Positions 21,890 to 64,000 of a stretch of DNA of 64,000 nt are shown piece by piece. The first letter of the stretch is position 1. Every line of letters begins with the position of its first letter. Below the pieces are notes generated by a model, which was not told the origin of the DNA, ran no database searches, and worked only from the letters and a program-made list of their open reading frames with translations. The stretch lies in the NCBI GenBank assembly GCA_963665325.3, contig CAXXWS020000003.1:1040051-1104050 (forward strand), written 5' to 3'. A program made the position numbers and the translations under genes. Origin of the DNA: Alphaproteobacteria bacterium. GTDB taxonomy: Bacteria > Pseudomonadota > Alphaproteobacteria > Bin95.

Positions 21890-22006
21890 GCGCATCTGGG
21901 CAATCGCATTTCAGCTTCGGCGGCTTCGGTCCGCACGGACTCTCTGTAGGACCGGACGCTTTCCCCTTTCGTCACCCCGGCCCCCGAGCCGTGTGTGGAC
22001 GCCTCC

Positions 22007-22258
22007 CTGGATGCAAGCAGTTTTTTCGGCTTGGTCGGGCCTATGCGGTCAGGCGGAGTCGTGTGTCCGGTTTCCCTTGTGCGGCACTTGAGTTGCCGCG
22101 GGCCAGTATGGAGATACGCGGATCGGGTCCATATCGGGGTCATGCGCTCGCGGCGCGCCGGCTCAGCCTGGTTTTCCCGATCCCGTCTCATTGACCGTTT
22201 GCCCTTACCCCTTGCCTCGGCCTGCCTGCATCCTCCGACGGCTCGCCGCACCGCCTTC
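22007..22258 (-). ncRNA. Putative bridge/seek RNA in the 3' non-coding region of the IS
   Basis: Position typical of the IS1111 group. Contains short matches to the target (cggggtc at 22135, ccggctc at 22158) and to the donor junction (tcgtgtgt at 22059). Confidence 0.65.
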
Positions 22259-23290
22259 TCAGGCGGCTGCGGGAGCCCGGTAGGTCTCCTTCTTCACGGC
22301 CAGCGCCCACAGGATGCGCGCCATGCGATTGGCGAGCGCGACGGCGACCAGCTTGCGCTTCCCTGGCTTGCTCGCCAGCAGGCGCGCCAGCCAGGGATCG
22401 TTGCACTTGCCCCGGCGGATGGCGTTCTGGATCACCGACATCGCCCCGACCACCAGCAGGCGGCGCAGGTCCTTCTGGCCCATCTTCGAGATCTTGCCGA
22501 GCCGCGGTTTGCCGGCTGTACTGTGCTGGCGGGGCGTGAGGCCGAGCCAGGCAGCGAAGTCGCGCCCCTTGCGGAAGGTTTCGAGCGGCGGGGCCAGGGC
22601 CTGGAGCGCCAGCGCCGTGACCGGCCCCACCCCCGGCACGGTCATCGCGCGGGCCGCCTCCTCGTCCTCGCGCGCGGCGGCCCGCAGCGTCCGGTCCAGC
22701 TCTCTGACCTTCCCGTCCAGCTCGGCGATCCGTTCCAGCAGCAGTGCCCCCATCTCGTGCGTCAGCGCCGGCAGAGACGCCCCCTCTTCGCCCTCAAGTG
22801 CCCAGGCCAGACGTGCCACATGCGCCGGCCCCTTGGGAGCTACAAGGCCGAACTCCGCTAGATGGCCCCGCAGCGCGTTGATCGTCTGCGTGCGCTGGCG
22901 CACCAGAAGCATGCGCACCCCCAACTGCATCGCCCCCGCCTGGCTCTCCTCGCTCTTCACCGTCACGAAGCGCATGGTCGGGCGCTGCGCCGCCTCGCAG
23001 ATCGCCTCCGCGTCCGCCGCGTCGTTCTTCTGCCGCTTCACATAAGGCTTCACATAAATCGGCGGGATCAGACGAACCTCATGGCCCAGCTTGCCGATCT
23101 CGCGGCCCCAGTAATGCGCACCCCCGCACGCCTCCATCGCAACCGTGCAGCGAGGTTGAGACAACAGAAACGCCAGAACCCGACCCCGCGACAGCTTGCG
23201 ACGGAACGCCACCGAGCCGTCCGAATACGCGCCGTGCATCTGAAAGCTGTTCTTCGACAGGTCCACCCCGATGATGCTAACCTCCTTCAT
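22259..23290 (-). CDS. IS110-family DEDD recombinase/transposase
   Basis: IGVDLSK, AMEACG, KNDAADAEAI, and the serine loop HSTAGK. Confidence 0.95.
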   Translation of the reverse strand: MKEVSIIGVDLSKNSFQMHGAYSDGSVAFRRKLSRGRVLAFLLSQPRCTVAMEACGGAHYWGREIGKLGHEVRLIPPIYVKPYVKRQKNDAADAEAICEAAQRPTMRFVTVKSEESQAGAMQLGVRMLLVRQRTQTINALRGHLAEFGLVAPKGPAHVARLAWALEGEEGASLPALTHEMGALLLERIAELDGKVRELDRTLRAAAREDEEAARAMTVPGVGPVTALALQALAPPLETFRKGRDFAAWLGLTPRQHSTAGKPRLGKISKMGQKDLRRLLVVGAMSVIQNAIRRGKCNDPWLARLLASKPGKRKLVAVALANRMARILWALAVKKETYRAPAAA

Positions 23291-23615
23291 TGGATGCCTC
23301 CTTCCCATTGGGGGTTTCAACAACACCACCATGGCACATTGCGATGCCGTCGGATGGAGGCGTCCACCCTATCGGGGTCCATCCATGGCTCTCGATACCG
23401 CCGCAACCGGTGGAGATGAGGGCGAACCGCCGAAGCTGCCGAGAGAACCGAGGCTGGGCCCCGGATCAGGGTCCGGGGCGACGCGTTGGGGATATGCAAT
23501 GCATTGCCGCCGGACGGAGATGTGTGCATGCGATAGGCTCGGCGTCCGGAGCGGCGACGGGGGGTAGGGCGAAAGGGACGCTCGAATCGGCCCGTTTTCG
23601 AATGCGATTGCCCGG

Positions 23616-49393: not shown

Positions 49394-49481
49394 CGTCGTT
49401 TTTTCTCCCGAAAATTTGCAACTGGGGAGTTGAGGTGCAATCCCTTTGTTCCCCGGCTGCAACCGGTACCGGGAGAGCGAT

Positions 49482-50606
49482 ATGCCCAGGACTACCCTTA
49501 CCGCGGCCCGCATCGAGCGGCTCAGGCCCCGCAAGTCATCCTACGATGTCCGGGACGCCAAACTCAGGGGCTTCGGCGTCCGGGTGATGCCCACCGGCAG
49601 GAAGCGGTTTTTCATCCAATGCCAGCATCGCGGTGAGCGCGTCTGGAAGATCGTCGGCGATGACGGCACCATGAGCGTCGACGAGGCGCGGGTTTCGGCC
49701 GTCCGGATACTTGCTGCAATCCGACGAGGCGAGGAAGCCCCGCACCGTCCCGACGAGACGCTTTTCGAGGCCGTCGCCGAGACCGTGTTCGAGCGCCATG
49801 CGCGGCTCTGGAAGGCCAGGACGCTCAATGTGAACCGAAGCTATCTTCGCTGCCAGATCCTGCCGCATTTCGCGGGGCGGCAGATTGCCGATATCGACCG
49901 GCAGGAGGTGAGGAACTGGTTCGCCTCGCTTCGCGCTACGCCGGTGGCGGCGGACCGGTCCATGCCGGTACTGTCCGTCATCATGAGGGAAGCGGAGACG
50001 ATGGGCCTGCGCCCGGAGGGCTCCAATCCCTGCAGAGGCGTCCGGCGCTACCGCCGCAAGGGTCGCGAGCGGTTCGTCTCCGACGAGGAAATCCGCAGCC
50101 TGTCCGCGAGGCTCAGGGCGCATGAAGCACGACGACCGCAGCAGGTCGCGGTCATCCGGCTTCTGCTCCTGACCGGCTGCCGCAAAAGCGAAATCCTCAC
50201 CTTGCAGTGGACGGACTACCGGGAAGGCCATCTGTTCCTCCGCGACGGCAAGACGGGCCCGAGAACCGTGTGGCTTTCGGAACCCGCCCGGAACATTCTC
50301 GACCACCTCACCCGCCGGAACCGCTGGATTTTTCCCGGGGCGCACCAGGACTGCCCGCGCAGCACAAGTTGGCTGAGCCTTTTCTGGAACGGGGTTCGCG
50401 CGGAAGCCGGGCTAGACGATTTGCGCCTTCACGATTTGCGTCACGCGCATGCGAGCCTGGCGCTCAGACGGGGCGAGAACATCGTCGCCATCGGCAGGCT
50501 GCTGGGCCACCGCAGGGCGGAGACGACTCTGAAATACACGCATGCCGCCGACGCCATGATGCACGACGCCGCCGAGTTGGTCGGCACAGTGCTTGGAGGA
50601 GGCTGA
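49482..50606 (+). CDS. Tyrosine recombinase/integrase 1 with N-terminal arm-binding domain
   Basis: GFGVRV arm domain; LLTGCRKSE, DGKTG, HDLRH, LLGH, TTLKY catalytic set intact. Confidence 0.93.
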   Translation: MPRTTLTAARIERLRPRKSSYDVRDAKLRGFGVRVMPTGRKRFFIQCQHRGERVWKIVGDDGTMSVDEARVSAVRILAAIRRGEEAPHRPDETLFEAVAETVFERHARLWKARTLNVNRSYLRCQILPHFAGRQIADIDRQEVRNWFASLRATPVAADRSMPVLSVIMREAETMGLRPEGSNPCRGVRRYRRKGRERFVSDEEIRSLSARLRAHEARRPQQVAVIRLLLLTGCRKSEILTLQWTDYREGHLFLRDGKTGPRTVWLSEPARNILDHLTRRNRWIFPGAHQDCPRSTSWLSLFWNGVRAEAGLDDLRLHDLRHAHASLALRRGENIVAIGRLLGHRRAETTLKYTHAADAMMHDAAELVGTVLGGG

Positions 50607-50609
50607 GGC

Positions 50610-51776
50610 ATGGCAGCAGGGGAACGCATGAAACTGACCGACGCCGATATCGCCCGTCTCCGTCCCCGCGAGCGGGAATACACCGTCTGGGACAGCCGCG
50701 CTGCCGGCCTCGGGGTCAGGGTCCGGCCCACCGGCGGGCGGAGCTGGGTCCTGCTGCTCGACGCCGGCGGGCGCACGAGGCGCGTCTCTCTCGGTCCGGT
50801 CTCGACAAAAAGTGTTGCCGATGCCCGCCGGGAGGCTTTCAGGCGGCAGGCCGACCCGAAGCCGGAGAAGACAGTCGGGAAGGCAGGTGCGGTACCATTG
50901 TTCCGGGATTTCGTCGCGGGCCCGTGGAAACAGGCCCACTTCGCCCGCTACAAGCCGTCGGGCCAGGACACCGCATCCGTGTTCTTGAGACGCCAGCTTC
51001 TTCCTGCATTCGGGGCGAAGCCGCTCGACCGCATTACCCCGGCCCATGTCAGGCAATGGTTCGACCGATACAGCCGAACCGCGCCGGGCGGCGCCAACCG
51101 CGCCTTCGATATTCTCCGCCAGATCATGAATTTCGCCGTCGCCTGCGGCTATAGGGAAACCAACCCGACCGGGGGCATCGCAAGAAATCGCCGCCCGAGG
51201 CTGACACGGTTCCTGTCCCGCGAGGAGATCGCGCGCCTGCACCGCGTCCTGGACGCTCAGACCCGCAAGGGCAGCAGGCAGCAGGCCGACATCGTCCGCC
51301 TTCTTCTGCTCACCGGATGCCGCAAGGGCGAGATCACAGGCCTGCGCTGGTCCGAGGTTCACGATGACATGCTGGCTCTTGCCGACAGCAAGACGGGTCC
51401 GAGGACAGTTCCGCTCAACAGCCAGGCAAGAACCGTTCTCGACCGGCAGCCGCACGGCGGAAGTCCTTTTGTGTTCCCCTCGCCGCTCGATCCCTCCCGC
51501 CCGCGCAGTCCCGAGCTGCCATTCTGGTATCGCGTCAGGCGGGAAGCCGGCATTGAGGATGTGCGCCTCCACGACCTGCGACATACCATGGCGAGCCATG
51601 CGGTGATGAACGGCGTGCCGGTGCCGGTCGTCTCGCGCCTGTTGGGCCATTCCAACGTGCAGATGACGCTGCGCTACGCCCATCTCGCCGATCGCGACAT
51701 CGCGGCCGCTGCTGAAAGGGTCGGCCAGACCATGAGCGCCCTGATGGAGATCGATGCGGCCAACTGCCAATCGTGA
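50610..51776 (+). CDS. Tyrosine recombinase/integrase 2 (paralog of integrase 1)
   Basis: WDSRAAGLGVRV; LLTGCRKGE, DSKTG, HDLRH, LLGH, MTLRY. Confidence 0.93.
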   Translation: MAAGERMKLTDADIARLRPREREYTVWDSRAAGLGVRVRPTGGRSWVLLLDAGGRTRRVSLGPVSTKSVADARREAFRRQADPKPEKTVGKAGAVPLFRDFVAGPWKQAHFARYKPSGQDTASVFLRRQLLPAFGAKPLDRITPAHVRQWFDRYSRTAPGGANRAFDILRQIMNFAVACGYRETNPTGGIARNRRPRLTRFLSREEIARLHRVLDAQTRKGSRQQADIVRLLLLTGCRKGEITGLRWSEVHDDMLALADSKTGPRTVPLNSQARTVLDRQPHGGSPFVFPSPLDPSRPRSPELPFWYRVRREAGIEDVRLHDLRHTMASHAVMNGVPVPVVSRLLGHSNVQMTLRYAHLADRDIAAAAERVGQTMSALMEIDAANCQS

Positions 51777-51818
51777 GCAGCACCAGCTGCAAGTTTCGAC
51801 TGCATGTCCAAAGCAGGT

Positions 51819-51858
51819 GTCGCCTCTGCCACCCTGAAATAGTGGTGGCAGAGGCGAC
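51819..51858. repeat. Perfect 15-bp inverted repeat with 10-nt AT-rich spacer downstream of the integrases
   Basis: gtcgcctctgccacc-ctgaaatagt-ggtggcagaggcgac. Confidence 0.8.
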
Positions 51859-52177
51859 GTTGCAACACACCTCTTGGGAAAAGAGGGTGAGGGTACAGTA
51901 TGGCTGTTTCCCAAAGACCTTTCAACTCTCGGAATCTCTCCAGGAATCGGTGTCGTCAGCACCCACCGCCCCGGCTTTCCGGAGGCAGTCTTGTTTGAGT
52001 CGTGCAGCCATATCGAGATTTTCGCTGCTGGCATAGCGATTTGCTTCCGCCGCTGCGGACGGAGTGTTGCCGATGGGGCCGGGCAGGCGGAGATTATGGA
52101 ACCGGTCGCCCCATTCGAGGGTGCGTATTCGACATGCGCTTCGCGACTATCCTACCTTGGCCAGTCCGACGGCATTG

Positions 52178-53059
52178 CTAGGGACCACGGAAGCTATCTG
52201 CGATTTCGCCGCTGACGGCCCGCGCAGCCTCATTGTCGAGATCGGGCCGTTCCAAAAGCTGGACGCCAATCTCCCCCAGTCTTGGCAGATGGGACGGCTG
52301 GAAGAGAACCTTCATATCCTCAGGTATTTGGCCTTCCGGCATGGCGGCGATCGCTCGACCTGACCGGATGACACGGTCGAGAAGCCGGTCGCTCCAGCTT
52401 GTCGCAGTCAGGCGGTACGCAATGTCATGGCTCTCCAGCGCAGCCAGCGCGGAAGCCCGAACCGGGCAGCCTTCCGGATAGCTTGCCAGATGAATGGGCC
52501 CATCTTGTCCGAACACGTAGTCCGGTGTGCCGGCCCAGCGAAGACGGGACCGGTCAAGCAACATCGCCGACGGCGTTTCCTCCCCCTGCAAAAGCAGCGC
52601 GAGATCGATACTGCCCGTTTCGACGGACCGCCGCAGTCCGTCACCGAAGTCGCAGACGATATCCAGCTCGATGGCTGCATAACGCTCACGAATACGCGCA
52701 AGGAGCGGCGCCAGCATCGCCGCTCCAAAACCTTCGATCGCGCCTATACGGACCGTGCCGGCAACCGTCCGGGACCGCGCACTGCGGAAGAGACGGTCAT
52801 GGTGATCGAGAAGGCCGCGCGCATCCAGGAACAGCTCCTTGCCCGCTGGCGTCAACCGCACATTCAGCCGGTTCCGATGGAACAATCGCTCCCCGATCTG
52901 TTCCTCGAGCATTCGAACACGGGTCGATACAGCGCCCTGAGAACACCCAATGAATCGAGCTCCGGCCGTGAAGCTCCGCTCGGCAGCTACGCTAACGAAC
53001 GCGCGCAGCAGCTTCATCTCGATGTCAGGTTTTGCCAGTCGCCTGTTCCGTGTCGTCAT
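52178..53059 (-). CDS. LysR-family transcriptional regulator
   Basis: LRAFVSVAAERSFTAGA...SQGAVSTRVRMLEEQIGERLFHR...LTPAG; divergent from porin 1. Confidence 0.9.
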   Translation of the reverse strand: MTTRNRRLAKPDIEMKLLRAFVSVAAERSFTAGARFIGCSQGAVSTRVRMLEEQIGERLFHRNRLNVRLTPAGKELFLDARGLLDHHDRLFRSARSRTVAGTVRIGAIEGFGAAMLAPLLARIRERYAAIELDIVCDFGDGLRRSVETGSIDLALLLQGEETPSAMLLDRSRLRWAGTPDYVFGQDGPIHLASYPEGCPVRASALAALESHDIAYRLTATSWSDRLLDRVIRSGRAIAAMPEGQIPEDMKVLFQPSHLPRLGEIGVQLLERPDLDNEAARAVSGEIADSFRGP

Positions 53060-53351
53060 ATTCGAGCCCGAGTTTTGTCATTCAGCACAGGACTTCATCT
53101 CTTCAGGCGTTCATTGATCCAATCGATCGGCTCCTGCTGATGGGGCCAGTTTCGATGTTATTGCATTGACAGCTTCTTGGCCAAGCCGGTCGATCGGCGG
53201 CGCGTAACCAGTGCTCAACAACACAATGCACCGGCGGCGAAGAGGATCGGTATCGCACCCCCAAGAACGCCGTGCACGCCGTGCATACCGCATTTCCGGC
53301 GAAGACGACGGAGCCGCCGGAAGACCCGGACGGTCCGGCACGATGCCTGCG

Positions 53352-53513
53352 CGGCTTTCGAAGCATCTTCCGGTCGCACATTGGGGATTATGAGAAAAAC
53401 CCTGCTTGCGACCTCTGCGCTGGCCTTTGCCGGCGCGCTGGCTGCCGGGCCGGCCTCGGCGGCCGACATGCTGAGCGTCGGCGTCGGCGGCTACATGCAG
53501 CAATGGATTGGTG
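53352..53513 (+). repeat. 162-bp inverted repeat, left copy (porin leader + 5' coding)
   Basis: Matches the reverse complement of 62883-63044 with 6 mismatches by eye; first 64 bp identical. Confidence 0.9.
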
Positions 53514-54748
53514 TATCCAGTCTCGACAGCGCCGCCGGCGATGGCGGCGTCAGCCAGTATTCGGACAGCGAAATCTTCTTCAGGGGCAAGCTGGAGGCCG
53601 ACAGCGGGCTGACCTTCTCCGTGAAGGTCGAGTTCGAGGGCAACACCCATGCGGACGTGGTCGATGAATCGCAGGTCACGGTCGGCGGCTCGTTCGGCCA
53701 GATCGTGCTCGGCTCCGAGGACGACCCGACGACGCTCATGCACTACGGCACCGGCGATGTCGGCGTCGGCCTGAACTGCGGCGACGCCTCGTTCATCAAC
53801 GGCCTGACCAGCTGCGCCAGAAGCAGCGGCAAGGGCCTCGGCACGGCCGGCCATCTGATCGGCGGCGACAGCCAGAAGATCGCCTACTACACCCCCCGCC
53901 TGAGCGGCGTGCAGTTCGGCGTGTCCTACAGCCCGGAGTCCGTCGAGGACAGCGGCGCCGGCTCGCCGGTGAACAATGACGAAGACGCGGTGTCGCTGGG
54001 CCTGAACTACACGGGCGCGGTGGGCGATACCAACGTCTCGCTCTCCGTCGGCCATTACCAGAAGAGCCAGGTCGGCGCGACGGAGATGCTCAAGTCGGGC
54101 ATGAACGACGCTGCGATCTCGGTCGGCACGTACATGGCCAACGTTAAGGCCATCGAGGACTATGCGACGGCGCAGGCCGAAGGCACCAGCTCCAGCCTCG
54201 ACACGCTGGCGAACGGCGCCGCAGCGGCAGAGGCGTCGAACAAGGGCGCGTTCGACACCATGGCCTCGAAGGCCGACAGCCAGACGTTCACCAATTTCGG
54301 CATTAATGTCGGCATGGGCGCGTTCGGCTTCAGCGCCGCCTACGCCGTGCATGACGGCGGCACCTACATGGTCGCCAAGAGCCCGGACGTGAATGTCGTC
54401 GCCGGCCACACATGGGACGATGACGGCGACGCAACGACAGCCGCTGTCGCGGAGTCCGGCGACAAGAACGACCCGTCGAACGATACCGCGCGGACGGTTC
54501 TCGTGAAGGACACCTCCAGGGACTACGAGGTGGCGAGCGCCGGCGTGATGTATTCGGACGGCCCGATGGCGGTCAGCCTGGCCCACATGATGGCCGATGC
54601 CGATGACGGCTCCAGTGTCAGCGCGACCATGCTGTCCGTCAGCTACACGCTGGCGCCGGGCGTCGCATCGCGGTCCACGCTTATGGCCGGCGAGCAGGAT
54701 GCGGCCCAGGGCACGGCGTTCGTGACCGGCATCACGCTCAGCTTCTGA
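53390..54748 (+). CDS. Outer-membrane porin 1 (general porin, long loop insertions)
   Basis: Signal peptide, DSEIFFRG, FGQIVLG, KIAYYTPR, C-terminal ITLSF. Confidence 0.88.
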   Translation: MRKTLLATSALAFAGALAAGPASAADMLSVGVGGYMQQWIGVSSLDSAAGDGGVSQYSDSEIFFRGKLEADSGLTFSVKVEFEGNTHADVVDESQVTVGGSFGQIVLGSEDDPTTLMHYGTGDVGVGLNCGDASFINGLTSCARSSGKGLGTAGHLIGGDSQKIAYYTPRLSGVQFGVSYSPESVEDSGAGSPVNNDEDAVSLGLNYTGAVGDTNVSLSVGHYQKSQVGATEMLKSGMNDAAISVGTYMANVKAIEDYATAQAEGTSSSLDTLANGAAAAEASNKGAFDTMASKADSQTFTNFGINVGMGAFGFSAAYAVHDGGTYMVAKSPDVNVVAGHTWDDDGDATTAAVAESGDKNDPSNDTARTVLVKDTSRDYEVASAGVMYSDGPMAVSLAHMMADADDGSSVSATMLSVSYTLAPGVASRSTLMAGEQDAAQGTAFVTGITLSF

Positions 54749-54833
54749 TCTGCGCGGCGAACGACCCCACGAAGGAACGATCCAAACGGTTTGCCCGGCC
54801 GAATCCGGTCCGGGTTGAAAGGAGAAGGGTTCG

Positions 54834-56435
54834 ATGAGAACCATGAAACATCTGGCCTTTGCGGCAATGGCCGCTTCGGCTCTGGCACTCGCAGGCTGCG
54901 GAGGTGGCGGCAGCTCCAGTAGCATGGTGGCGCCCACGACGCCCACCACCACCACGTCGGAGACGACGACGCCCACGTCGATGGAGCTCCTGCTGCCGAG
55001 CGGCAGCAACATGTATCTCGACGACAGCGACACGATGCTCGCCGACGGCACATTCACCGTCGCAGCCGGCACGACGGTGAACCGTGGCGCCTACGCCTTC
55101 ACCTGCGGCGGCGACGAGGACTGCACGGTCACGGTCGCCGATGACGTAGTCACCGAGACGGGCGGTGTCACGGTCGACTACACGGCGACGGCGCAGGCCA
55201 CCATCACCATGAAGATGATGATGGCGGACGAGACGAACACCGAGAAGGCGATCGGCCTGTCGAAGGCGCTGGCCGCCGCCACCGAGGACGACGACAATGC
55301 TCCCACCGTATCCCGGGGGACGAGCGGCGCCGCCACTTTCAAGAAAGCCGGCTTCGAAGCGGGCGCGGCCCCGATGAGCATCGCCGGCTGGGAAGGCGCG
55401 ACGCTGACCCAGAAGACCCAAAGCATCGTGGCCTATACGGAGATCGAGGCCGCGACGCGGATGGCGTTTACGAAGGTTTATAGTGCTACGGCAGCGGACA
55501 ATCCCGGCGGACTTGCTTTCGCAGATGGCATGGTGACGATTCCCGCTGCCGCGTTGTCGTCCTCTCAAGCAGCCCTGCTGGACAAGACCCGTTTCCCGCA
55601 GAAGGGAAGCGCGGGTGCTGGAACCGAGACGTGGACCTACGTTGATGAAGCCGATGTCGATGTGGGCGAAAAGATGCACCCTCGGGAGTTCTCCGGTACC
55701 CTCCAAGGTGCGCGGGGCGATTACAGTTGCACCGGTGAGTGCTCCGTGGCGGTCACCGATGCCGGCAGCTACACGTTCGCAGGCACTTGGAATTTCGATC
55801 CCGACTCCTCCGCCCAGGCCGTCGTGACGGATCCCGACTACCTGACCTTCGGATGGTGGATCGACGAGAAGAAGAAGACCGCGGCAGGGGACTATCCTTT
55901 CACGGTCAACACATTCGCCACCGGGTCAGCGGTGTTCCCGACGGCCGCCGATACCGACACTGGCGCTGTTGGCCTGGACACCCTTACGGGCGAGGTGGAA
56001 TATAACGGCGTGGCGGCCGGCCTCTACGCGGTCAAGAATGTCGAGGGCGGGGAGATCGTTTCCGCCGCCCACGGAGCCTTCACCGCTGACGCCAGCCTGA
56101 CCGCCGACTTCGAGGCAGGAGATGCCGGGTTCCTTTCCGGCAAGATCGACGGTTTCCAAGGCGGTATGGACATGTCGGGCTGGGAGGTGACGCTGCAGAA
56201 GTCCAACTTCGATACCGACGGCAGCCTGGCGGACCAAGACGACGCCATCAACGCCACCGGCATGATGGTCGCGGGCAAGATCGGCGACACCAAGAGCACG
56301 AACGGCATCTGGGATGTCAGTCTCCACGGGTCAGGCGCAGACGCCGCCGCGCCCAGCGGAATCGCCGGGACCTTCCGGGTCGACTTCACCAACGCCAATA
56401 TCGCCGGAGCGTTCGGCGCAACGCGCGACAAGTAG
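54834..56435 (+). CDS. Surface lipoprotein 1, TbpB/fHbp-like C-terminal barrel (predicted Slam substrate)
   Basis: Lipobox LAGC-GGGG, DYLTFGWW, FTADASLTADF, C-terminal IAGAFGA. Confidence 0.8.
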   Translation: MRTMKHLAFAAMAASALALAGCGGGGSSSSMVAPTTPTTTTSETTTPTSMELLLPSGSNMYLDDSDTMLADGTFTVAAGTTVNRGAYAFTCGGDEDCTVTVADDVVTETGGVTVDYTATAQATITMKMMMADETNTEKAIGLSKALAAATEDDDNAPTVSRGTSGAATFKKAGFEAGAAPMSIAGWEGATLTQKTQSIVAYTEIEAATRMAFTKVYSATAADNPGGLAFADGMVTIPAAALSSSQAALLDKTRFPQKGSAGAGTETWTYVDEADVDVGEKMHPREFSGTLQGARGDYSCTGECSVAVTDAGSYTFAGTWNFDPDSSAQAVVTDPDYLTFGWWIDEKKKTAAGDYPFTVNTFATGSAVFPTAADTDTGAVGLDTLTGEVEYNGVAAGLYAVKNVEGGEIVSAAHGAFTADASLTADFEAGDAGFLSGKIDGFQGGMDMSGWEVTLQKSNFDTDGSLADQDDAINATGMMVAGKIGDTKSTNGIWDVSLHGSGADAAAPSGIAGTFRVDFTNANIAGAFGATRDK

Positions 56436-56476
56436 CTTCTCGTTGCAGGGCGCAGAAGCACTCTGCAAGCCAATTT

Positions 56477-56510
56477 CCCCGGCCATCTTCCGAGTGGCCG
56501 GGGCTTTTTT
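56477..56510 (+). terminator. Intrinsic terminator between lipoprotein 1 and Slam 1
   Basis: ccccggcca-N9-tggccgggg followed by a T-tract. Confidence 0.7.
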
Positions 56511-56529
56511 CCGCAAGATCGTCGAAGCC

Positions 56530-57792
56530 ATGAGTACATTTGTTCTCACCATCGTTCTGGCAGGGCTGCTTGTGCTCATCGCCGCGCCCCTCGCCTTCGG
56601 CCAGGACAGGAACGAAGCCCGCTTCCGCACCGGCATGGCCGCCGTCGAGGCGGCCGCGCAGGAGCAGGACGAAGATGCCCGGGACGAGAAGCTCGACGAG
56701 GCCATCGCGGCCTTCCGCGCCATTCTCGTGAGCCGCCCGGAGCTTGTGCGGGTGCGGCTCGAACTCGCCCGCGCCTTCTTCCTGAAGGAGGAGGACACGC
56801 TCGCCCGGAGGCATTTCGAGCAGGTGCTGGCGGGTGACGTGCCCCCGGCTGTCGCCGCCAACATTGCCCGCTTCCTGCGCGTCATGCGCTCCCGGCGGCG
56901 ATGGGAGGCGCATTTCGGGGCGGCCATAGCCCCCGACAGCAACCTGAACGCCGCCTCGGGCGAGCGCACGGTCTTCCTCGACACGCCCTTCGGCCGCCTG
57001 CCCTTCACCCGCCAGGGCGACATCGCGCCCAAGTCCGGCCTCGGCGTCTCGGTCTGGGGCGGCGGCGAATACCAGTATCCGCTCGGAGCGGGCCGCTGGC
57101 GGCTGCGCTCCGGGGCGGACGCGAGCGTCCGCGAATACAAGGGCGGGACCTTCGACCGCCATTCCGTCTCCGCACATCTCGGCCCCCGCCGGCTGATCGA
57201 CGCGCGCACCGAGGCGAGCCTGCTCGCCACCGTGGACCGGCAGTGGACCGCCGGCATGCCCGAGACCGACCGCTTCGGACTGCGGCTGGAAGCCGAGCGC
57301 CGCCTGACGCCGCGCCTCGCCATGTTCGGGCAGGCGAGCGCCGCCCGGCGCAACTGCCGCGACTGCAACTGGCTCGACGGCCCGGTGGGAGACATTTCGC
57401 TGGGGGCGGGCTGGGCCGCGCTTCCCGTGCTCCGGATCGACGCTAATGCCGGCTGGAGCTGGAGCCGCACGAACTCCGAGCACTGGCGTTCGAGCGGGCC
57501 CCAGGCGAGCCTTGGCGCAACGCTGGCGCTGCCGGCGGGCTTCACCGTGGGCCTGCGCGCCTCCCTGCAGCGCACGGAATATCAGGGGCCGGGCTTCGCC
57601 CACAACACCATCGACGGCGAGCCGCGCGAGGACGAAACGCAGACGCTCTCCGCCTCGGTGCACAACCGCGCGGTGACGGTGCTCGGCTTCAGCCCCCGCC
57701 TCTCGCTCGTCCGCGAGGAGCGCGACACCAACGCCCAGGCCCTCGACTACAAGCGAAACCGCGCCGAGCTCAGCTTCGTGCGCCAGTTCTGA
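56530..57792 (+). CDS. Slam / DUF560 outer-membrane translocator 1 (type XI secretion)
   Basis: TPR-like RVRLELARAFF, APDSNLN, beta-barrel ending in FVRQF; adjacent to a lipoprotein. Confidence 0.85.
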   Translation: MSTFVLTIVLAGLLVLIAAPLAFGQDRNEARFRTGMAAVEAAAQEQDEDARDEKLDEAIAAFRAILVSRPELVRVRLELARAFFLKEEDTLARRHFEQVLAGDVPPAVAANIARFLRVMRSRRRWEAHFGAAIAPDSNLNAASGERTVFLDTPFGRLPFTRQGDIAPKSGLGVSVWGGGEYQYPLGAGRWRLRSGADASVREYKGGTFDRHSVSAHLGPRRLIDARTEASLLATVDRQWTAGMPETDRFGLRLEAERRLTPRLAMFGQASAARRNCRDCNWLDGPVGDISLGAGWAALPVLRIDANAGWSWSRTNSEHWRSSGPQASLGATLALPAGFTVGLRASLQRTEYQGPGFAHNTIDGEPREDETQTLSASVHNRAVTVLGFSPRLSLVREERDTNAQALDYKRNRAELSFVRQF

Positions 57793-57879
57793 CTGAACAG
57801 CCGGATGGACAGGCTGCACGCGCGATAGTCGGCCGCACACGCCGTTGACGGAGTAGCTTTCGGTCGCCACCTTGCTCGC

Positions 57880-58172
57880 ATGAGATCGGTGGCATCAAGG
57901 TTCTGAACAGCAAGCTGAGCGAATACGTCCGGCTTGCGGCGTCCGGCGAAACGATTCTCGTGACTGATCGGGATCGGGTCGTGGCAGAACTCGGCCCGCT
58001 GAGGGAGACACGGAGCCCGTTTCTCGCCGACGCCTTCCTGGCCGAGGCGGTGCGGTCCGGCGTGCTGACGCCGCCGAGGCTGGCCGCTTCGGGACCGCCG
58101 CCCAAACCCGCGCCCGTCGCCACGCTGGACGAAATCCTGGCGGATCTGGACGAGAGCCGGCGCGACCGGTGA
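57880..58172 (+). pseudogene. Phd/YefM-family antitoxin with 5' frameshift
   Basis: MRSV / GIKVLNSKLSEYVRLAASGETILVTDRDRVVAEL; span is 293 nt, one base short of a whole number of codons. Confidence 0.75.
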
Positions 58173-58568
58173 TCTACATCGACACGTCCGTCGCGCTCGC
58201 GCATCTTCTTGCCGAGGATCGCCAGCCTCCCGGCTCGCTCTGGGAGGAGACACTGTTTTCCACCCGATTGCTGGAATACGAAATATGGACCCCGCTGCAC
58301 GCACGCGAGCTTGCGGCGAAGCAGCACGCTGGCTGATCGGGCGGGTCGCGATGCTGGATCTTTCGCCGTCGGTGCTGGCGCGGGCACTGAATGCCTTTCC
58401 CTGCCCCGGCCCGGTGCGGACGCTCGACGCCTGCATCTGGCGTCGGGCGCTTATCTGGCCGGGCACGGACAGGGGGTCATGCTCGCAAGCTATGACCGGC
58501 GAATGAACACCATCGCCCGCGCGATGGATATTTCGCTGTTCGACTTGGAAGCATCGCAAACTGCATGA
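58169..58568 (+). pseudogene. PIN-domain (VapC) toxin with frameshifts
   Basis: MIYIDTSVAL..., ...VRTLDA / HLAS...LASYDRRM spread over several frames; GTGA overlap with the antitoxin. Confidence 0.75.
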
Positions 58569-58574
58569 TTGTCG

Positions 58575-58865
58575 TAGCGGCGGCCCCGAACGCCCGAATG
58601 GGGACATCCGACGGGTAGGTCAGCCACCATCCTGCCGCGAGGTAGTCCGTCGGGTCGGCGTCATTCCAATCGATGAGAGCGTAGAGGAACACCCGGCCGT
58701 CATAGTGGTTGTCCGCCAGTATCCATTCGCGGCTGGAATGACCGGGCTGGACGGGACGCGGGAGGAACAGCCCCGACGTCCATTCGGTGTCCCGGACGGT
58801 ATTGAGGGTGCCGGTCCGGTCCCGCCGTCAGGGATCCGCACGTCGACACTGAGCACGCCCTCGGC
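58575..58865 (-). pseudogene. Internal fragment of a third surface-lipoprotein-like gene
   Basis: TLNTVRDTEW...ALIDWNDADPTDYLAAGWWL echoes DYLTFGWW/AYMTFGWW in the two intact lipoproteins; no start, frameshifted. Confidence 0.5.
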
Positions 58866-58948
58866 CTGAGCGGCGCGGGCGGCGGGCGCAGCGCAGGCGG
58901 ACTTTGTAACCGGTCTTACGGTGCATCCCGCTCTGTCCGGCTGCTCAG

Positions 58949-60247
58949 TCAGAACTGTCTGACGAAGGAGAGTTCGGCGCGGTTGCGCTTGTAGTCGAGG
59001 GCCTGGGCGTTGGTGTCGCGCTCCTCGCGGACGAGGCTGATGCGGGGGCTGAAGCCGAGCACAGTCACCGCGCGGTTGTGCACCGAGAGCGAGAGCGTCC
59101 GCGTCTCGTCCTCGCGCGGCTCGCGGTCGATGGTGTTGTGGGCGAAGCCCCGCCCCTGGTATTCGGTGCGCTGCATTGAGGCGCGCAGGCCCACGGTGAA
59201 GCCAAGCGGCAGCGCCAGCGACGCGCTCAGGCTGGCCTGCGGGCCGCTCGAGCGCCAGTGTTCGGAGTTGGCGCGGCTCCAGTTCCAGCCGGCATTGCCG
59301 CTGAGGCGCAGGACCGGCAGCGCGGCCCATGTGGCCCCGAGCGAGACATTCCCCTCCGGGCCGTCGAGATGATTGCAGTCGCGGCAGTTGCGCCGGGCGG
59401 CGCTCGTCCGGGCGAACATCGCAAGACGCGGCGTCAGCCGGTGCTCGCCTTCCAGGCGCAGGCCGAAGCGGTCTGTCTCGGGCATCCCGGCGGCCCATTG
59501 CCGGTCCACGGTCGCCAGCAGGCTCGCCTCCGTCCTCGTGTCGATGAGCCGGCGCGGGCCGAGATGGGCCGAGAGGAAATGGCGGTCGAAGGTCCCGCCC
59601 TTGTATTCCCGGATGCTGGCGTTGGCCCCGGAGCGCAGCCGGAGAGTCTGTGAAAGCGGATACTGGTATTCGCCGCCACCCCAGATGGAGAGGCCAAGGC
59701 CGGACTTCGGTGCGATGTCGCCCTGGCGGGTGAACGGTATGCGTTGCCCGAGAAAGTCGAGGAAGATCGTGCGTTCGCCGGAGGCGGCGTTCAGATTGCT
59801 GTCCGGGGCAAGGGCCGCGCCGAAATGCGCCTCCCAGCGCCGCCGCGAGCGCATGGTGCGCAGAAAGCGGACGATATTGGCAACCACCGGGGGCGGCGGC
59901 CTGCCGGCCAGCACCTGCTCGAAATGCCTCCGGGCGAGCGTGTCCTCCTCCTTCAGGAAGAAGGCGCGGGCGAGTTCGAGCCGCACCCGCACAAGCTCCG
60001 GGTTATTCACCAGGATGGAACGGAACGCGGCGATGGCCTCGTCGAGCTTCTCGTCGCGGGCCTCACGGCCCGTTGCGGTGTGGGCGGCATGGAGGGCCGC
60101 TATGCCAGCTCGGAAGCGCCTGTCGGTGGCATCAGCGGCGCCAACGCCGCCTTTCGCAACATTCGCTGCGCCGGGAGCGGCATAGGCGAGCGTCGCGGTG
60201 ACGAGGATGAGAAGGCCGGTGACGATGATGAGGATCAGGAAGCGCAA
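58949..60247 (-). CDS. Slam / DUF560 outer-membrane translocator 2
   Basis: Close paralog of Slam 1 over most of its length; TTG start LRFLILII. Confidence 0.85.
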   Translation of the reverse strand: MRFLILIIVTGLLILVTATLAYAAPGAANVAKGGVGAADATDRRFRAGIAALHAAHTATGREARDEKLDEAIAAFRSILVNNPELVRVRLELARAFFLKEEDTLARRHFEQVLAGRPPPPVVANIVRFLRTMRSRRRWEAHFGAALAPDSNLNAASGERTIFLDFLGQRIPFTRQGDIAPKSGLGLSIWGGGEYQYPLSQTLRLRSGANASIREYKGGTFDRHFLSAHLGPRRLIDTRTEASLLATVDRQWAAGMPETDRFGLRLEGEHRLTPRLAMFARTSAARRNCRDCNHLDGPEGNVSLGATWAALPVLRLSGNAGWNWSRANSEHWRSSGPQASLSASLALPLGFTVGLRASMQRTEYQGRGFAHNTIDREPREDETRTLSLSVHNRAVTVLGFSPRISLVREERDTNAQALDYKRNRAELSFVRQF

Positions 60248-60274
60248 ATCACGTTCCGCTGACTCGAATGAAAG

Positions 60275-60303
60275 AGGCCCACGGGGCAGTGCCCCGTGGG
60301 CCT
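60275..60303 (-). terminator. Hairpin between lipoprotein 2 and Slam 2
   Basis: aggcccacggggc-agt-gccccgtgggcct, followed by CTTTC on the minus strand. Confidence 0.6.
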
Positions 60304-60362
60304 GGGTAGTCCCCCGCGCCCCGGCCGCCGGAGCAGCCGGGGTGAAGGCCCGAACAACGCCG

Positions 60363-61895
60363 TCAGTTCGGCGGGTTCGGGTTCTCGATATTGGCGCCGA
60401 ACGCGCCGAGCATCCTGCCCTGTTCGTTGAAGTTGGCGTTGAACGTGCCCGAAACGCCGGTGGGCAGATTGTCGTTGCGGCTCTTGCCGGTGTTGGAAAG
60501 CTGCGCTTGCCAACCGCCCGCTGCGTCCGCCTTGCTCGACCCGACGGCCCATTGCGTGGACGAATCGGCTCTCGCGACCGAGCCATCGGCGGTGGAGATG
60601 GCATGTGGCATCAGCGTCACGGTCCAGCCCGGGTCCGTGCCGTCATCGCCGAGCCGGAAGCCGAAGATCGAGCCATTCATCATGTTGGTATCGAAGTTTG
60701 CCGCAAGGCTGGCCTTCGCGGTGAAGTGGCCGCCATGGGCGGTGTCCGCGACCCGGTCCCGCCAAGCATACTTGCCGGCGGCGCCGCCTTCGTAATCCGC
60801 CTCGCCGGTCAGTGCGTCAACATCGCCCACGGCGGTGCCCCCCCGCGGTCCGTGGAACACCGTCACGGCGTCAAGCGGATCGGAGGACGTCTTGATGTCC
60901 CTCATCCACCACCCGAAGGTCATGTAGGCGGGATCCGCGATCGAGACCATCGCTCCGGTGTTGGCGGTGAACGTCCAGCCCGCACCGCCGCCGAACGCGA
61001 TGGTGCCATTGGCATTCACCGACGAGGTGCAGTCGGCCCCGGTGCACTGGTAGGACCCGGTGGCGCCACTGTACGTGCCGGGCAGCATCACCACATCGTT
61101 CGTAGCCGCGGCCTCAGTCGACTTGGCATTCGGCTCGTGCTCGACCGTGCCGCCGTCGCGCCCATCGAAGGCCGCGCCCGCAACGCCTGCGTGAGCAGTG
61201 GTCGACAACGGCAGCTCCTGCCCGCCGCCGCCATGCACCTCCGAGAACAGCTTGCTGCTCGACGCGGCGATGTCGGTATAGACGAACATCGTGTCGGCCC
61301 TGGTCGTGTCCTCCCAGGTCAGCATCGTTCCCGAGAAGCCGTTGTTCGCGGCAAGGCTCACCGACGTTCCGGCCTGTGCGCTCGTGAACGCGGTATTGGT
61401 GGTTGCGTCGATGTCGACAAGCGGGTCAGCAACACCGGCACCGTCAAGAAACGTCTTTAGATTGGTGCCGGTCAACCGTGTCGTCCCCCCGTACCTCGCC
61501 GATACCAGCGGCGTGGTTCCGGCAATCGACGCGTCGGCGGGAGTGGTGGAATCGCCCAACGGGTCGAGCACGCCGAAGATGGCCTTGCCCTTCGCCGTCA
61601 TGGCGATCGTGGCAGCCTTGTTCGCATTATCCTTCTCGTCGTTGACCTGCTTGGTGAGATCGCGCACCTGATTTTCCAGAGCGGTGACGCTGCCGGTCAG
61701 GTCGTCAATGTCGATCGCCGGCAGCCCAAGCTCCGCCCGCAGCGCGTTGATCTGCCCTTGAAGCGTGGCGATCTGCTCTACCTGTGTCGCGCCGTCCGTT
61801 GCCGACTGGGGCGACCCTCCGCCGCCTCCGCATCCGGCAAGCGCCAGGGCCGTAGCGGTCATCGCCGCGATAGCCCAATGTTTCATGGTTCTCAT
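60363..61895 (-). CDS. Surface lipoprotein 2 with N-terminal coiled coil and TbpB-like barrel
   Basis: Lipobox LAGC-GGGG, heptad region, AYMTFGWW, FTAKASLAANF, MLGAFGA. Confidence 0.8.
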   Translation of the reverse strand: MRTMKHWAIAAMTATALALAGCGGGGGSPQSATDGATQVEQIATLQGQINALRAELGLPAIDIDDLTGSVTALENQVRDLTKQVNDEKDNANKAATIAMTAKGKAIFGVLDPLGDSTTPADASIAGTTPLVSARYGGTTRLTGTNLKTFLDGAGVADPLVDIDATTNTAFTSAQAGTSVSLAANNGFSGTMLTWEDTTRADTMFVYTDIAASSSKLFSEVHGGGGQELPLSTTAHAGVAGAAFDGRDGGTVEHEPNAKSTEAAATNDVVMLPGTYSGATGSYQCTGADCTSSVNANGTIAFGGGAGWTFTANTGAMVSIADPAYMTFGWWMRDIKTSSDPLDAVTVFHGPRGGTAVGDVDALTGEADYEGGAAGKYAWRDRVADTAHGGHFTAKASLAANFDTNMMNGSIFGFRLGDDGTDPGWTVTLMPHAISTADGSVARADSSTQWAVGSSKADAAGGWQAQLSNTGKSRNDNLPTGVSGTFNANFNEQGRMLGAFGANIENPNPPN

Positions 61896-61983
61896 CGAAC
61901 CTCTCTCCTTTCAACCCGGGCCGGCCGCGCCAGCCGGGCAAATTGTCTTGGTCGTTCCTCCGTGGCGTGGACTACCGCGCCGA

Positions 61984-63006
61984 TCAGAAGCCGAGCGTGA
62001 TGCCGGTCACGAACGCCGTGCCTTCGGTCTCGTTGGCGGTGTCCTCGACGCCGAAGACAGAGCTTTTCCACGCGACGCCCGGCGCCAGCGAATAGCTGGC
62101 CGAGAGCATGGTCGCGTTGCGCTCCGTGCCGTCTTCCACATCGTGGAGCATATGCCCCAGGCTGACCGACATCGGGCCGTCCGCGTAGCTGACGCTGGCG
62201 CCCACGACCGACCACTCGTCCTTTGTCATGCCCGTGCCCTTGTCGCGCTCGGCATAGGCAACGTTGAAACCGAACGCGCCGGTGCTGACCGCAAGGCCCA
62301 TGTTGGTGAACGTGTCGTCGTCGGCGTCAGTGCCGGCGGCGCGGTGGCCGAGCGAAATCTTGACGCTGGCGTCGGCGAGTTCCTGGTTCAGGTTGATGCC
62401 GCCGGCGACCACGGCGTTGTCGTTGTTCTTCGGTGCGCTGGTGACCGAGTTCTCGCTGGCCGAGTCCGCCCCGTAGGACAGGCCGACCTGTACGCCGTTC
62501 ATGCGCGGCGAGATGTAGATGACGTTCAGGTTGTCCCCGATCCAGCCATTGGTGTCGAGATAGGCGCCCGGGATCCACTTCTGCGTGTCGCCTGCGTTCA
62601 GGCCGACGCCGACATCCTTGATGCCGTAATGCGTGCGCGCATGGATCGGGTCGCGCTGGCCGATCTCGATCCGACCGAAGTCGCCGCTCATGAATGCGAA
62701 CGACTCGTCGATCTCGGTGTCGTCGCCCTTCGGATCGGTATGCGCTTCGTTGTTGGCCTCGAGCTGGACATGCACGCCGAACTTGAGACCCATGTCGGAC
62801 TCCATCGAGCCCTTGAAATAGATTTCGCTGTCCGACTGGATGTCGACACCGCCCTCGTCGCTGTCGTCAGTCCGGTCGGCTGCACCAATCCACTGTTGCA
62901 TATAGCCGCCGACGCCGACGCTCAGCATGTCGGCCGCCGAAGCCGGCCCGGCAGCCAGCGCGCCGGCCAAGGCCAGCGCGGAGGTCGCAAGCAGGGTTTT
63001 TCTCAT
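61984..63006 (-). CDS. Outer-membrane porin 2 (short loops)
   Basis: Nearly identical N-terminus to porin 1, DSEIYFKG, FGRIEIG, YISPR, C-terminal ITLGF. Confidence 0.88.
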   Translation of the reverse strand: MRKTLLATSALALAGALAAGPASAADMLSVGVGGYMQQWIGAADRTDDSDEGGVDIQSDSEIYFKGSMESDMGLKFGVHVQLEANNEAHTDPKGDDTEIDESFAFMSGDFGRIEIGQRDPIHARTHYGIKDVGVGLNAGDTQKWIPGAYLDTNGWIGDNLNVIYISPRMNGVQVGLSYGADSASENSVTSAPKNNDNAVVAGGINLNQELADASVKISLGHRAAGTDADDDTFTNMGLAVSTGAFGFNVAYAERDKGTGMTKDEWSVVGASVSYADGPMSVSLGHMLHDVEDGTERNATMLSASYSLAPGVAWKSSVFGVEDTANETEGTAFVTGITLGF

Positions 63007-63044
63007 AATCCCCAATGTGCGACCGGAAGATGCTTCGAAAGCCG
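62883..63044 (-). repeat. 162-bp inverted repeat, right copy
   Basis: Partner of 53352-53513. Confidence 0.9.
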
Positions 63045-63288
63045 ATCAGCGGGTTACGAAAACCGCGTGTCCGCAGGGAGTTGCCGTAACTCCACGATTG
63101 CCGGATGGACCCGGTTATGCGGGTCGGGTCGAACGGCTACCTGTCGGTTCAGGCTTCCGGTGGTTACCGAGATCGCCTGTCCCGTTCAGCGCCGCCCGTG
63201 CGCATCCAGACGCCAAATTGTCATCGATAAGGGACTTACAAAGATTGGTTGACGGCATCTTGCCAGTCTTCGTCCGGACCGGTCCGCG

Positions 63289-64000
63289 TCAGGGGCATGC
63301 AGGCTCCGAAACGCGGTCCAAACCGCTCCAGGAGAGCGCTATGTCGGCGCTTCGATGTTCGAAGGCGCCGGCATAGCGCCTGATTTCCTCGGGCGTCATA
63401 CCCAGCCGTTCCCCCAACCCTCGCCAGTTGTCGCGGATATATGAGGCCATCGCTTTCGCCCGCGCTGCCGCGGCATCGACGGAGACGTCGAAAAACGGGG
63501 CGGCATCGATCGCCGCCTCGATGTCGGGTTCGAACCCGTGGACCTCCGAAATGCCGGTCTGCAAAAGGCCTCCTCCCCCGGGCTCGGGATTGATGTCGTA
63601 GGCGGGCGACAGACGCCACCGGCCGCCAGAGACATGGAGAAAGGCATGATTGCGGAGATGGTCGTCGAAGTTCGAGACGAGGATGGTAAACAGCAGGCGG
63701 CCGTACAGCTCGGCCATGTCCACTGCCGGCTCTTCCCCATGCCCCCTGATGGCGTCCGCGATCGAAACGTAATCGCTCGGCTCGGCGCCGTCGATCGCGA
63801 GCATTGTCTGCGCCGACATGAAAGGAATACGCCTCTCTCCCGACCGGTCGAAGCGCCGGATGAGGGCGACGGGATAGCGACGGGCTCCGGGCAGCAGCTG
63901 CGCCTCGGCCGCACGGATGCCGCATGCAGATGCGAGCTGCAACGCGAGGACCTCTCCCCTCGCCACGGGGAGCGCGTCCCCGGTGCTTGCCAGCTTTGCA
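63289..64000 (-). CDS. hipA: HipA-family kinase toxin, C-terminal part (runs off window end)
   Basis: IRRFDR, SNFDDHLRNHAF, LSPAYDINP. Confidence 0.85.
   Translation of the reverse strand, partial: AKLASTGDALPVARGEVLALQLASACGIRAAEAQLLPGARRYPVALIRRFDRSGERRIPFMSAQTMLAIDGAEPSDYVSIADAIRGHGEEPAVDMAELYGRLLFTILVSNFDDHLRNHAFLHVSGGRWRLSPAYDINPEPGGGGLLQTGISEVHGFEPDIEAAIDAAPFFDVSVDAAAARAKAMASYIRDNWRGLGERLGMTPEEIRRYAGAFEHRSADIALSWSGLDRVSEPACP

Follow-up and report, generated by a model that had tools for sequence, protein, structure and literature searches.

Mirror-image porin, lipoprotein and Slam operons of a sponge-associated alphaproteobacterium: a multi-copy surface family probably diversified by recombination at shared joints

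Two sets of porin, surface lipoprotein and Slam translocon genes that face each other in mirror image, with nearly identical ends and divergent middles, raise the question of whether such a locus is a switch for surface antigens or one member of a family of operons diversified by ordinary recombination. The locus lies within a window of 64,000 nucleotides (GenBank assembly GCA_963665325.3, contig CAXXWS020000003.1, positions 1,040,051 to 1,104,050 of the forward strand) that forms the end of contig C4 of a genome in five contigs (G000; C1 to C5) from a sponge-associated alphaproteobacterium; coordinates given without a contig are those of the window. With a probability of about 0.75, the locus belongs to a multi-copy family of surface operons diversified by general homologous recombination and gene conversion at shared joints.

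The mirror-image locus and its joints

The segment 53352-63044 consisted of two convergent triads in mirror image, each made of a porin, a lipoprotein and a Slam gene for a translocon of the type XI secretion system (T11SS), and hereafter called cassettes A (left) and B (right; Table 1). The leader blocks (53352-53513 against the reverse complement of 62883-63044) differed at 6 of 162 bp and were identical in the first 64 bp, and their identity stopped abruptly on both sides, the left and right sides of the locus differing in sequence upstream of the leader. The porin 3' blocks (54710-54750 against 61982-62022) had 1 mismatch in 41 bp, and the ribosome-binding site (RBS) and start of the lipoprotein gene (GGGTTGAAAGGAGA...TTCGATGAGAACCATGAAACAT) were common to both cassettes. 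Repeat finding and blastn gave inverted arms of 172 nt at 94% identity in the leader, of 95-138 nt at 76-84% around the porin end and the lipoprotein start (83-84% for the junction-block repeats I5 and I7), and of 706, 309 and 89 nt at 86-89% in the Slam genes, with 84% over 1207 nt. Between cassettes A and B, protein identity was 78% for Slam; the porins reached 38% by BLASTP, or 54% when aligned columns are counted, and alignment of the lipoproteins was limited to the signal peptide and the C-terminal half, the latter with 36% identity over 256 amino acids. All sequence statements of a preliminary description of the locus, that is the inverted three-gene cassettes, the block coordinates and the mismatch counts, were reproduced; the upstream regions of the two cassettes were also found to differ as it had said, with a palindrome upstream of porin B only. 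Its picture of a single inverted duplicate was too narrow, as this locus is one of four in a multi-copy family.

Four mirror-image loci with eight distinct triads were found in the genome by tblastn and inspection of open reading frames (ORFs), in the order porin-lipoprotein-Slam facing Slam-lipoprotein-porin. The pair in the window is locus W and the other mirror loci are X, Y and Z, with L and R for the left and right cassette. The leader block was common to all 9 cassette porins of the genome, and every porin of this type sat in a cassette. The Slam genes formed two subtypes, one of Slam A with XR and YR (85-86% identical) and one of Slam B with YL, ZL and ZR (88-93%); W and Y each combined one Slam of each subtype, and X apparently did so too, its frameshifted left Slam being closer to Slam B than to Slam A (tblastn).

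Porins and lipoproteins did not follow each other among these cassettes. Porin A (WL) was 98% identical to porin XR on C2, and their lipoproteins were 43% identical. Porin B (WR) was 98-99% identical to porins XL and YL, with lipoproteins at 30-35%; conversely, lipoprotein B was 76% identical to the lipoproteins of locus Z, with porins at 53%. Nucleotide homology between such pairs stopped 77-147 bp into the lipoprotein gene, just past the lipobox, or alternatively started with the final ~43 bp of the porin gene, both limits being the junction blocks named above. It seems from these alignments that the whole mirror unit was copied and the lipoprotein bodies were replaced afterwards.

The arms of locus Z formed a 4095-bp inverted repeat, with 0 mismatches in the first 3194 bp (untranslated region (UTR), porin, lipoprotein and start of Slam) and 92 mismatches (~10%) in the last 901 bp. 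The boundary has the form of a sharp conversion-tract edge between the mirror arms. Divergence at synonymous sites (pS) between the two cassettes of the window was 0.16 in the first 40 porin codons (the leader) and 0.29-0.51 in the rest of the porin, and fell to 0.11-0.17 in two segments of Slam. On the terms of the preliminary description, conserved blocks as diverged at synonymous sites as the rest would have refuted the recombination idea; the leader was instead the lowest within the porin.

Exchange of flanks was located at the leader. The LysR flank with the 5' UTR (51866-53645) was 93.9% identical to positions 2183-3948 of locus L090 (G011:C3:646000-665500) in the closest relative, G011, where it runs into a type-2 porin. 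In a five-way alignment, the G011 sequence tracked the left flank of the window to the leader and the porin B type from columns ~268-295, which correspond to the leader's 3' end. G011 has the flank in a second copy too, syntenic back to window position 50400 and leading into a third porin form, the 3' part of which resembled the Z type at 79%. Within the genome itself, the W pair on C4 and its copy on C2 had different upstream sequence from 53372, with a 5' UTR of the porin B kind on C4 and of the Z kind on C2.

The family was thus a mosaic in that it had conserved flanking blocks, divergent bodies and incongruent modules, with breakpoints in at least 4 blocks (leader end, lipoprotein leader, porin 3' end and inside Slam). 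The proposal that recombination at the junction blocks brought flank or promoter, porin, lipoprotein and Slam into new combinations was borne out by chimeric cassettes in this genome and its relatives. That of a dedicated switching system found no such backing, with no invertase in the locus and breakpoints spread over several blocks instead of at fixed sites. With breakpoints dispersed and no recombinase in the locus, a site-specific switch fits less well than general homologous recombination and gene conversion. A site-specific invertase was rejected on these grounds, the integrases at 49446-51776 being of the island type, and a one-off tandem or inverted duplication was rejected because there were four loci with incongruent modules.

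Under the favored reading, a sponge-associated alphaproteobacterium carries several copies of an operon for a Porin_4 porin, a lipoprotein of the TbpB/HpuA fold and the Slam translocon expected to export that lipoprotein, with short, near-identical joints at the 5' UTR plus porin leader, at the porin 3' end plus lipoprotein leader, and over most of Slam. As the sequence comparisons show, general recombination of the RecA type and conversion at these joints have repeatedly swapped flanks, porins, lipoprotein bodies and Slam segments, both between loci and between the arms of one locus. With the tail-to-tail layout, exchange within a locus would result in inversion or conversion and in no deletion, and both variants would be retained while still able to exchange. 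The outcome, among paralogs as among strains, would be diversity in the porin loops and in the N-terminal domains of the lipoproteins that are exposed, and the selective agent might be phage, host cells or ligand range.

Orientation of the interior and the assembly

A different account is programmed or high-frequency switching, in which the interior inverts reversibly in a clonal population and re-pairs regulated upstream regions with gene sets, giving phase or antigenic variation. The preliminary description had expected crossover at the blocks to invert the interior. Positions 53370-60812 matched L090 14677-7154 at 92.6% and 60889-63044 matched L090 5856-3655 at 85%, both in inverted orientation; the interior is hence inverted in G011 relative to the LysR flank, and this part of the expectation stands as a difference between genomes. 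The account also agrees with a LysR gene divergent from porin A, upstream regions that differ, one of them with a cassette-specific palindrome, and a leader identical over its first 64 bp. Nearby, at a distance of 1.6 kb, are two genes for tyrosine recombinases; their domain set is that of island integrases (Arm-DNA-bind_3) and they have paralogs elsewhere in the genome; breakpoints in at least 4 blocks speak against a site-specific invertase as well. Beyond the first 64 bp the arms are 72-94% identical, so that inversion driven by RecA would be rare.

The structure of the assembly bears on the same account. The last 10.6 kb of C4 (53372-64000) were 99.991% identical to C2:99777-110405. Blocks shared by C2 and C4 were identical at 99.98-99.99%, and C2 and C5 shared long blocks at 99.5%, flanking Z on C5 and W...X on C2. 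The ends of C4, C5 and C2 either fell within a cassette or next to one, or consisted of sequence found on another contig too. With 99.991% identity and two left flanks in a single assembly, the pair could represent a structural variant at the level of the population, as switching would produce, and the left junction of W may be a population variant. Whether these 10.6 kb reflect a fork in the assembly graph or, just as well, a duplication of very recent date, a recent exchange falls in the leader, and the number of cassette copies per cell is uncertain.

Of 22 public runs, all in the form of short Logan contigs, four were compared over 50000-64000 (runs X1, X3, X5 and X10). The pieces were mostly 0.4-2.3 kb long and ended at conserved blocks, leaving orientation undecided. 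Two opposite-strand joints in one contig of run X5 (54290/62581 and 54579/62013) looked like a further mosaic porin allele and not like an inversion junction, and a joint from 57581 to 53370 (runs X1 and X5) had only 31 letters on its shorter side. A contig of run X5 (52898-53400) spanned the LysR flank into the leader and stopped within the part common to all leaders. In runs X3 and X10, the cassette was covered and the LysR block 51868-53268 was almost absent, which fits a LysR block that varies between populations. No read showed both orientations, the short contigs of the four runs breaking at the repeats. With breakpoints as dispersed as they are, programmed switching is unlikely.

Several points weigh against diversification by recombination at the joints, or narrow what can be read from them. 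This genome and G011 have different right flanks, and because of this the comparison proves, as far as sequence goes, a leader breakpoint and an inverted collinear interior, and not a clean two-ended inversion. The homologous locus in G011 is interrupted by a TAA at codon 37 of the left porin, a split left lipoprotein and a split right porin frame, which would fit decay and not a maintained system; these interruptions may come from pseudogenisation or from errors in the assembly. Selection on the signal peptide and the translation signals could explain part of the conservation seen in the leader. The genome is apparently assembled from a metagenome, with contamination of 4.22% (CheckM-type); some of the paralogs could be strain haplotypes, and the left junction of the window may be a fork in the assembly graph, with two left flanks leading into one W. 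None of the contigs of the four runs crossed a block and extended far enough beyond both of its ends.

Two further observations concern the G011 locus. Its left lipoprotein was split around a stretch of ~1.2 kb that is absent from the window (L090 5856-7154). It was also flanked on both sides by divergent LysR genes, 96% and 87% identical to that of the window, so that the palindrome there includes the regulators.

Taken to its end, strain mixture would make the family an artefact, with contigs of co-existing strains binned or joined together, fewer cassettes per cell and no special recombination. The contamination estimate, the blocks of C2 at 99.5-99.99% identity to C4 and C5, the contig ends in or beside cassettes or shared sequence, and runs X3 and X10 with the cassette but hardly any LysR block all agree with it. 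It is nevertheless very unlikely. The same architecture and mosaicism occurred in independent assemblies (G011, G005, G002 and OZ220750.1), W and X lay wholly within one contig, as did Z, and strain mixing would still need recombinant junctions in real molecules. Erroneous joins at repeats of 40-160 bp are improbable with long-read assembly, the use of long reads being judged from contig sizes.

Cassette proteins, flanks and relatives

Gene identities given in the preliminary description held: Porin_4 and SlipAM matches were above their cut-offs and the lipoboxes were present. Both porins had the marks of Gram-negative porins, with the Porin_4 profile (PF13609) above the cut-off of 27 bits, a leader ending in ...PASA, followed by AD, and F as last residue. 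Both Slam proteins matched the DUF560/SlipAM barrel domain (PF04575, cut-off 22 bits) in full length (profile positions 1-288 of 288); TPR_Slam reached 26.4 and 29.5 bits for Slam A and B, below its cut-off of 35.2, TPR_16 was weak, and NCBIfam gave only sub-threshold matches for the six cassette proteins. A lipobox gene lay directly upstream of Slam in all 8 distinct cassettes, that of YR being cut by the contig end, and from this arrangement Slam should carry the neighboring lipoprotein to the cell surface. Between lipoprotein and Slam, all 6 cassettes examined had a hairpin at a common position, its stem occurring in at least 4 different sequences; it is probably an attenuator that would hold the translocon below the level of porin and cargo.

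The six aligned lipoproteins of the genome all began with MRTMKH...LALAGC followed by GGGG, and all 53 homologues aligned (from the genome and related loci) had a lipobox followed by a glycine run, with C22 invariant. No Pfam family matched in lipoproteins A and B, TbpB_B_D and lipoprotein C giving no match at sequence level, and a profile of six lipoprotein sequences found one chance-level match (E 0.084) among PDB sequences. The AlphaFold2 model of lipoprotein A (mean pLDDT 84.3, pTM 0.77) had eight C-terminal strands (residues 386-531) preceded by a beta-rich handle. All 10 Foldseek matches in the PDB at E<=0.001 were neisserial or Acinetobacter lipoproteins, namely HpuA, hemophilin, TbpB and the C-domain of NHBA (probability 0.97-1.00, E 4e-5 to 9e-4), with fHbp (probability 1.00, E 1.7e-3), LbpB and HphA next in line. 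A handle and an eight-stranded barrel define the TbpB-like family in the passages that Hooda et al. (PMC5449769) devote to it. The lipoproteins belong to that family by predicted fold, since the predicted fold matches HpuA, hemophilin, TbpB and NHBA. At the lipoprotein start, every cassette scanned had a hairpin, GGTTC-GATGA-GAACC on the coding strand, with the start codon in the loop (54828-54842 and 61887-61901 in the window); it may affect translation initiation.

Related assemblies were sponge-type metagenome-assembled genomes (MAGs) labelled Alphaproteobacteria or Candidatus Poriferihabitaceae. The genome had 15 PF04575 matches, and homologues of Slam A occurred in all 16 other genomes of the genus, with 1 to 23 matches each (23 in G005). 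Convergent Slam pairs were found in related loci L010, L024 and L039, of which L039 was a complete mirror triad with Slam at only 53% identity. Lipoprotein-Slam pairs with Slam at 43-56% identity occurred in MAGs labelled Nitrospirales, Binatia and Gammaproteobacteria, several of them with bin names of sponge studies, a hint that the pair is exchanged within sponge microbiomes. Such pairs, with a lipobox-GGGG gene upstream (loci L037-L083), were also seen in MAGs labelled Defluviicoccus, Syntrophobacterales and Chloroflexota, the Chloroflexota instance being a 5-kb contig that is possibly mis-binned.

These relatives bear on whether porin and lipoprotein form a substrate-specialised uptake system in two parts, channel and ligand catcher, after the manner of TbpA/TbpB and SusC/SusD, with recombination incidental to it; the paralogs would then differ in the solutes they take up and not for evasion of recognition. 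Of 76 related loci, at least 16 had the order porin-lipoprotein-Slam with a conserved joint (full triads in 5 assemblies, searched with hidden Markov models built from this genome), and the lipoprotein fold resembles the ligand-binding HpuA, hemophilin and TbpB. Known Slam cargo is often paired with an outer-membrane barrel, the gene-cluster counts in PMC5449769 giving a TonB-dependent receptor in 120 of 185 Slam clusters. Against this, one porin type (98-99% identical) went with three lipoproteins at 30-35% identity, so that porin and lipoprotein co-varied little, and outside this alphaproteobacterial group the lipoprotein-Slam pair had no porin beside it (none among 10 upstream ORFs sampled in 9 loci). 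Specialised uptake is possible, and on balance doubtful.

Single features of the window and the cassette loci are collected in Table 1. The LysR block 51866-53350 was found at cassette ends in G011 at 96%, 96% and 87% identity, and LysR paralogs (69-79%) lay near Slam genes on C1 and in G011, G013 and G016. From 51866 on, the block looks like a separate mobile or variable unit, the synteny of one G011 copy beginning exactly there. The palindrome GGAGTTACGGCAACTCC occurred once in the window, with 0 sites expected, and was absent upstream of porin A; all 5 exact sites in the genome were upstream of cassette porins, and the reversed-pattern control gave 0. A scan for sigma-70 promoters gave 0 sites and is uninformative for an alphaproteobacterium of high GC content. 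The HipA_C ORF sat directly beyond the upstream region of porin B.

At the center of W, PhdYeFM_antitox scored 19.7 bits, below its cut-off, and a 55-amino-acid ORF is presumably a VapC-like N-terminus. The centers of the mirror loci held unrelated cargo, that of Z being MazE/MazF (PemK), a Tn5-like transposase and a methyltransferase (L088 8230-10904), and the center of X carried the same methyltransferase (L086 7398-8399). No recombinase or invertase was present among the genes and ORFs inside 53352-63044. Paralogs of the integrase pair at 76-77% were on C1, C3 and C5, and no tRNA gene was found within 40000-64000. Outside the mirror loci, C1 held a lone lipoprotein-Slam pair, and Slam fragments at C2:147578-147876, C1:1229642-1230714 and C1:1789607-1790014 look like cassette remnants. 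An IS110-family element (21970-23381; Transposase_20, DEDD_Tnp_IS110) had copies at 100% identity at C3:1297215-1298626 and C1:1479220-1480631, the latter ~640 bp from the lone pair. A 4.4-kb element with a rve-type integrase and an AAA_25 protein with HTH, found at C2:25283-29666 and C2:86277-90660 among well over 20 copies (99.9-100%) on all five contigs, looks like a very active transposon.

Table 1. Features of the window and mirror loci of the genome
Feature	Coordinates	Strand	Remarks
Tandem tyrosine-recombinase (P4-like phage integrase) genes	49446-50606, 50610-51776	+	Phage_integrase 72.6 and 82.8 bits; Arm-DNA-bind_3
LysR-family regulator	52178-53059	-	HTH_1 67.6 bits, LysR_substrate 65.9 bits; divergent from porin A
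Left leader block	53352-53513	+	38 nt of 5' UTR, signal peptide and first strand of porin A
Porin A, type 1, 452 amino acids	53390-54748	+	Porin_4 98 bits; two long loop insertions (by alignment)
Left junction block	54705-54910	+	Porin 3' end, intergenic RBS, lipoprotein signal peptide, lipobox, Gly linker
Surface lipoprotein A, 533 amino acids	54834-56435	+	Lipobox LALAGC, residues 17-22; no Pfam match
GC-rich hairpin with T tract	56477-56503	+	Candidate attenuator/terminator between lipoprotein A stop and Slam A start
Slam A, alpha subtype, T11SS outer-membrane translocon	56530-57792	+	PF04575 80.9 bits
Palindrome center, 1156 bp	57793-58948	.	Decayed toxin-antitoxin pair, ORFs 57960-58172 and 58169-58336, + strand
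Slam B, beta subtype	58949-~60270	-	PF04575 82 bits; start codon uncertain, just downstream of hairpin
Hairpin, 13 pairs, 11 G-C	60275-60303	-	Between lipoprotein B and Slam B
Surface lipoprotein B, 510 amino acids	60363-61895	-	Lipobox; N-terminal region looks helical or coiled-coil
Right junction block	61819-62027	-	Porin 3' end, RBS, lipoprotein leader
Porin B, type 2, 340 amino acids	61984-63006	-	Porin_4 126 bits
Right leader block	62883-63044	-	Inverted partner of 53352-53513
Perfect palindrome GGAGTTACGGCAACTCC	63077-63093	-	Candidate operator upstream of porin B
HipA-like kinase C-terminal domain ORF	63289-63966	-	HipA_C 121 bits; contig end
Locus W	window; also C2:99795-109411		Mirror pair
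Locus X	C2:163970-174306		Left Slam frameshifted
Locus Y	C2:188729 to contig end		Right lipoprotein cut by contig end
Locus Z	C5:346204-359498		Mirror pair

Known systems and meaning

The functionally closest system is the neisserial Slam with TbpB-like cargo (TbpB, LbpB, HpuA and fHbp) and an outer-membrane partner. Common to both are a DUF560/SlipAM translocon, an adjacent lipobox lipoprotein with a predicted handle and 8-strand barrel, and an outer-membrane barrel gene in the cluster. The partner in the present cassettes is a Porin_4 general porin, in contrast to the TonB-dependent receptor of the Slam clusters counted above from PMC5449769, and the fixed porin-lipoprotein-Slam order, the 15 Slam matches in one genome, the lack of a TbpB_B_D match and the host, a sponge-associated alphaproteobacterium, differ as well.

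In logic, the invertible SusC/SusD units of Bacteroides come closest, together with families that depend on RecA, such as sap. Campylobacter fetus sap and neisserial pil/opa have conserved 5' blocks and divergent bodies, with RecA-type inversion and conversion tracts, and the present paralogs share the conserved 5' blocks and divergent bodies with them. The sap system has a single promoter on an invertible segment; here, unlike in sap, each cassette has its own, different upstream region. The SusC/SusD units described in parts of PMC9881135 likewise pair a barrel with a surface lipoprotein in opposed paralogs, with 5' inverted repeats that permit promoter re-pairing. Inversion there is due to site-specific recombinases acting on short fixed sites, with two orientations in single cultures, whereas the locus studied has no invertase and has breakpoints over several homology blocks. 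It also differs in its protein families and in lipoprotein export via Slam, and inversion is seen here between genomes only.

Among T11SS loci, those of 'cluster 3' in Rhodobacteraceae/Roseobacteraceae are alphaproteobacterial and marine too, and their gene neighborhoods have been studied (PMC12282271). According to portions of that study, barrel-type cargo is rare in them (8 of 145) and DUF1194 co-occurs instead; here, canonical barrel-type cargo stood beside every complete Slam examined. The main texts of the two T11SS neighborhood papers contain neither 'porin' nor 'sponge', and their supplementary tables could list porin co-occurrence. No description of Slam/T11SS with porins in this arrangement or in sponge symbionts was found in the literature searched.

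A more far-reaching reading is a 'surface shufflon' independent of recombinases, in which exchange and inversion would be frequent enough for a single population of sponge symbionts to show many porin and lipoprotein coats, and expression sites controlled by LysR and the palindrome would choose the coat. This is improbable; if true, it would be a T11SS-based counterpart of SusC/SusD and sap switching, and would allow escape from phage or from recognition by sponge host cells.

Slam/T11SS has so far been described mainly in animal pathogens, with a single cargo exported and a TonB-dependent receptor as partner. Distinctive here are the massive expansion (15 Slam matches, and up to 23 in a relative), the porin partner, and exposed parts that recombination would have reshuffled. 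If diversification at shared joints is true, it would give a concrete genetic basis for surface variability of uncultured sponge symbionts. The swapped combinations of porin, lipoprotein and Slam would also be a natural set for asking what sets the specificity of Slam for its cargo, and an inverted gene layout, not a dedicated enzyme, may both preserve and mix paralogs.

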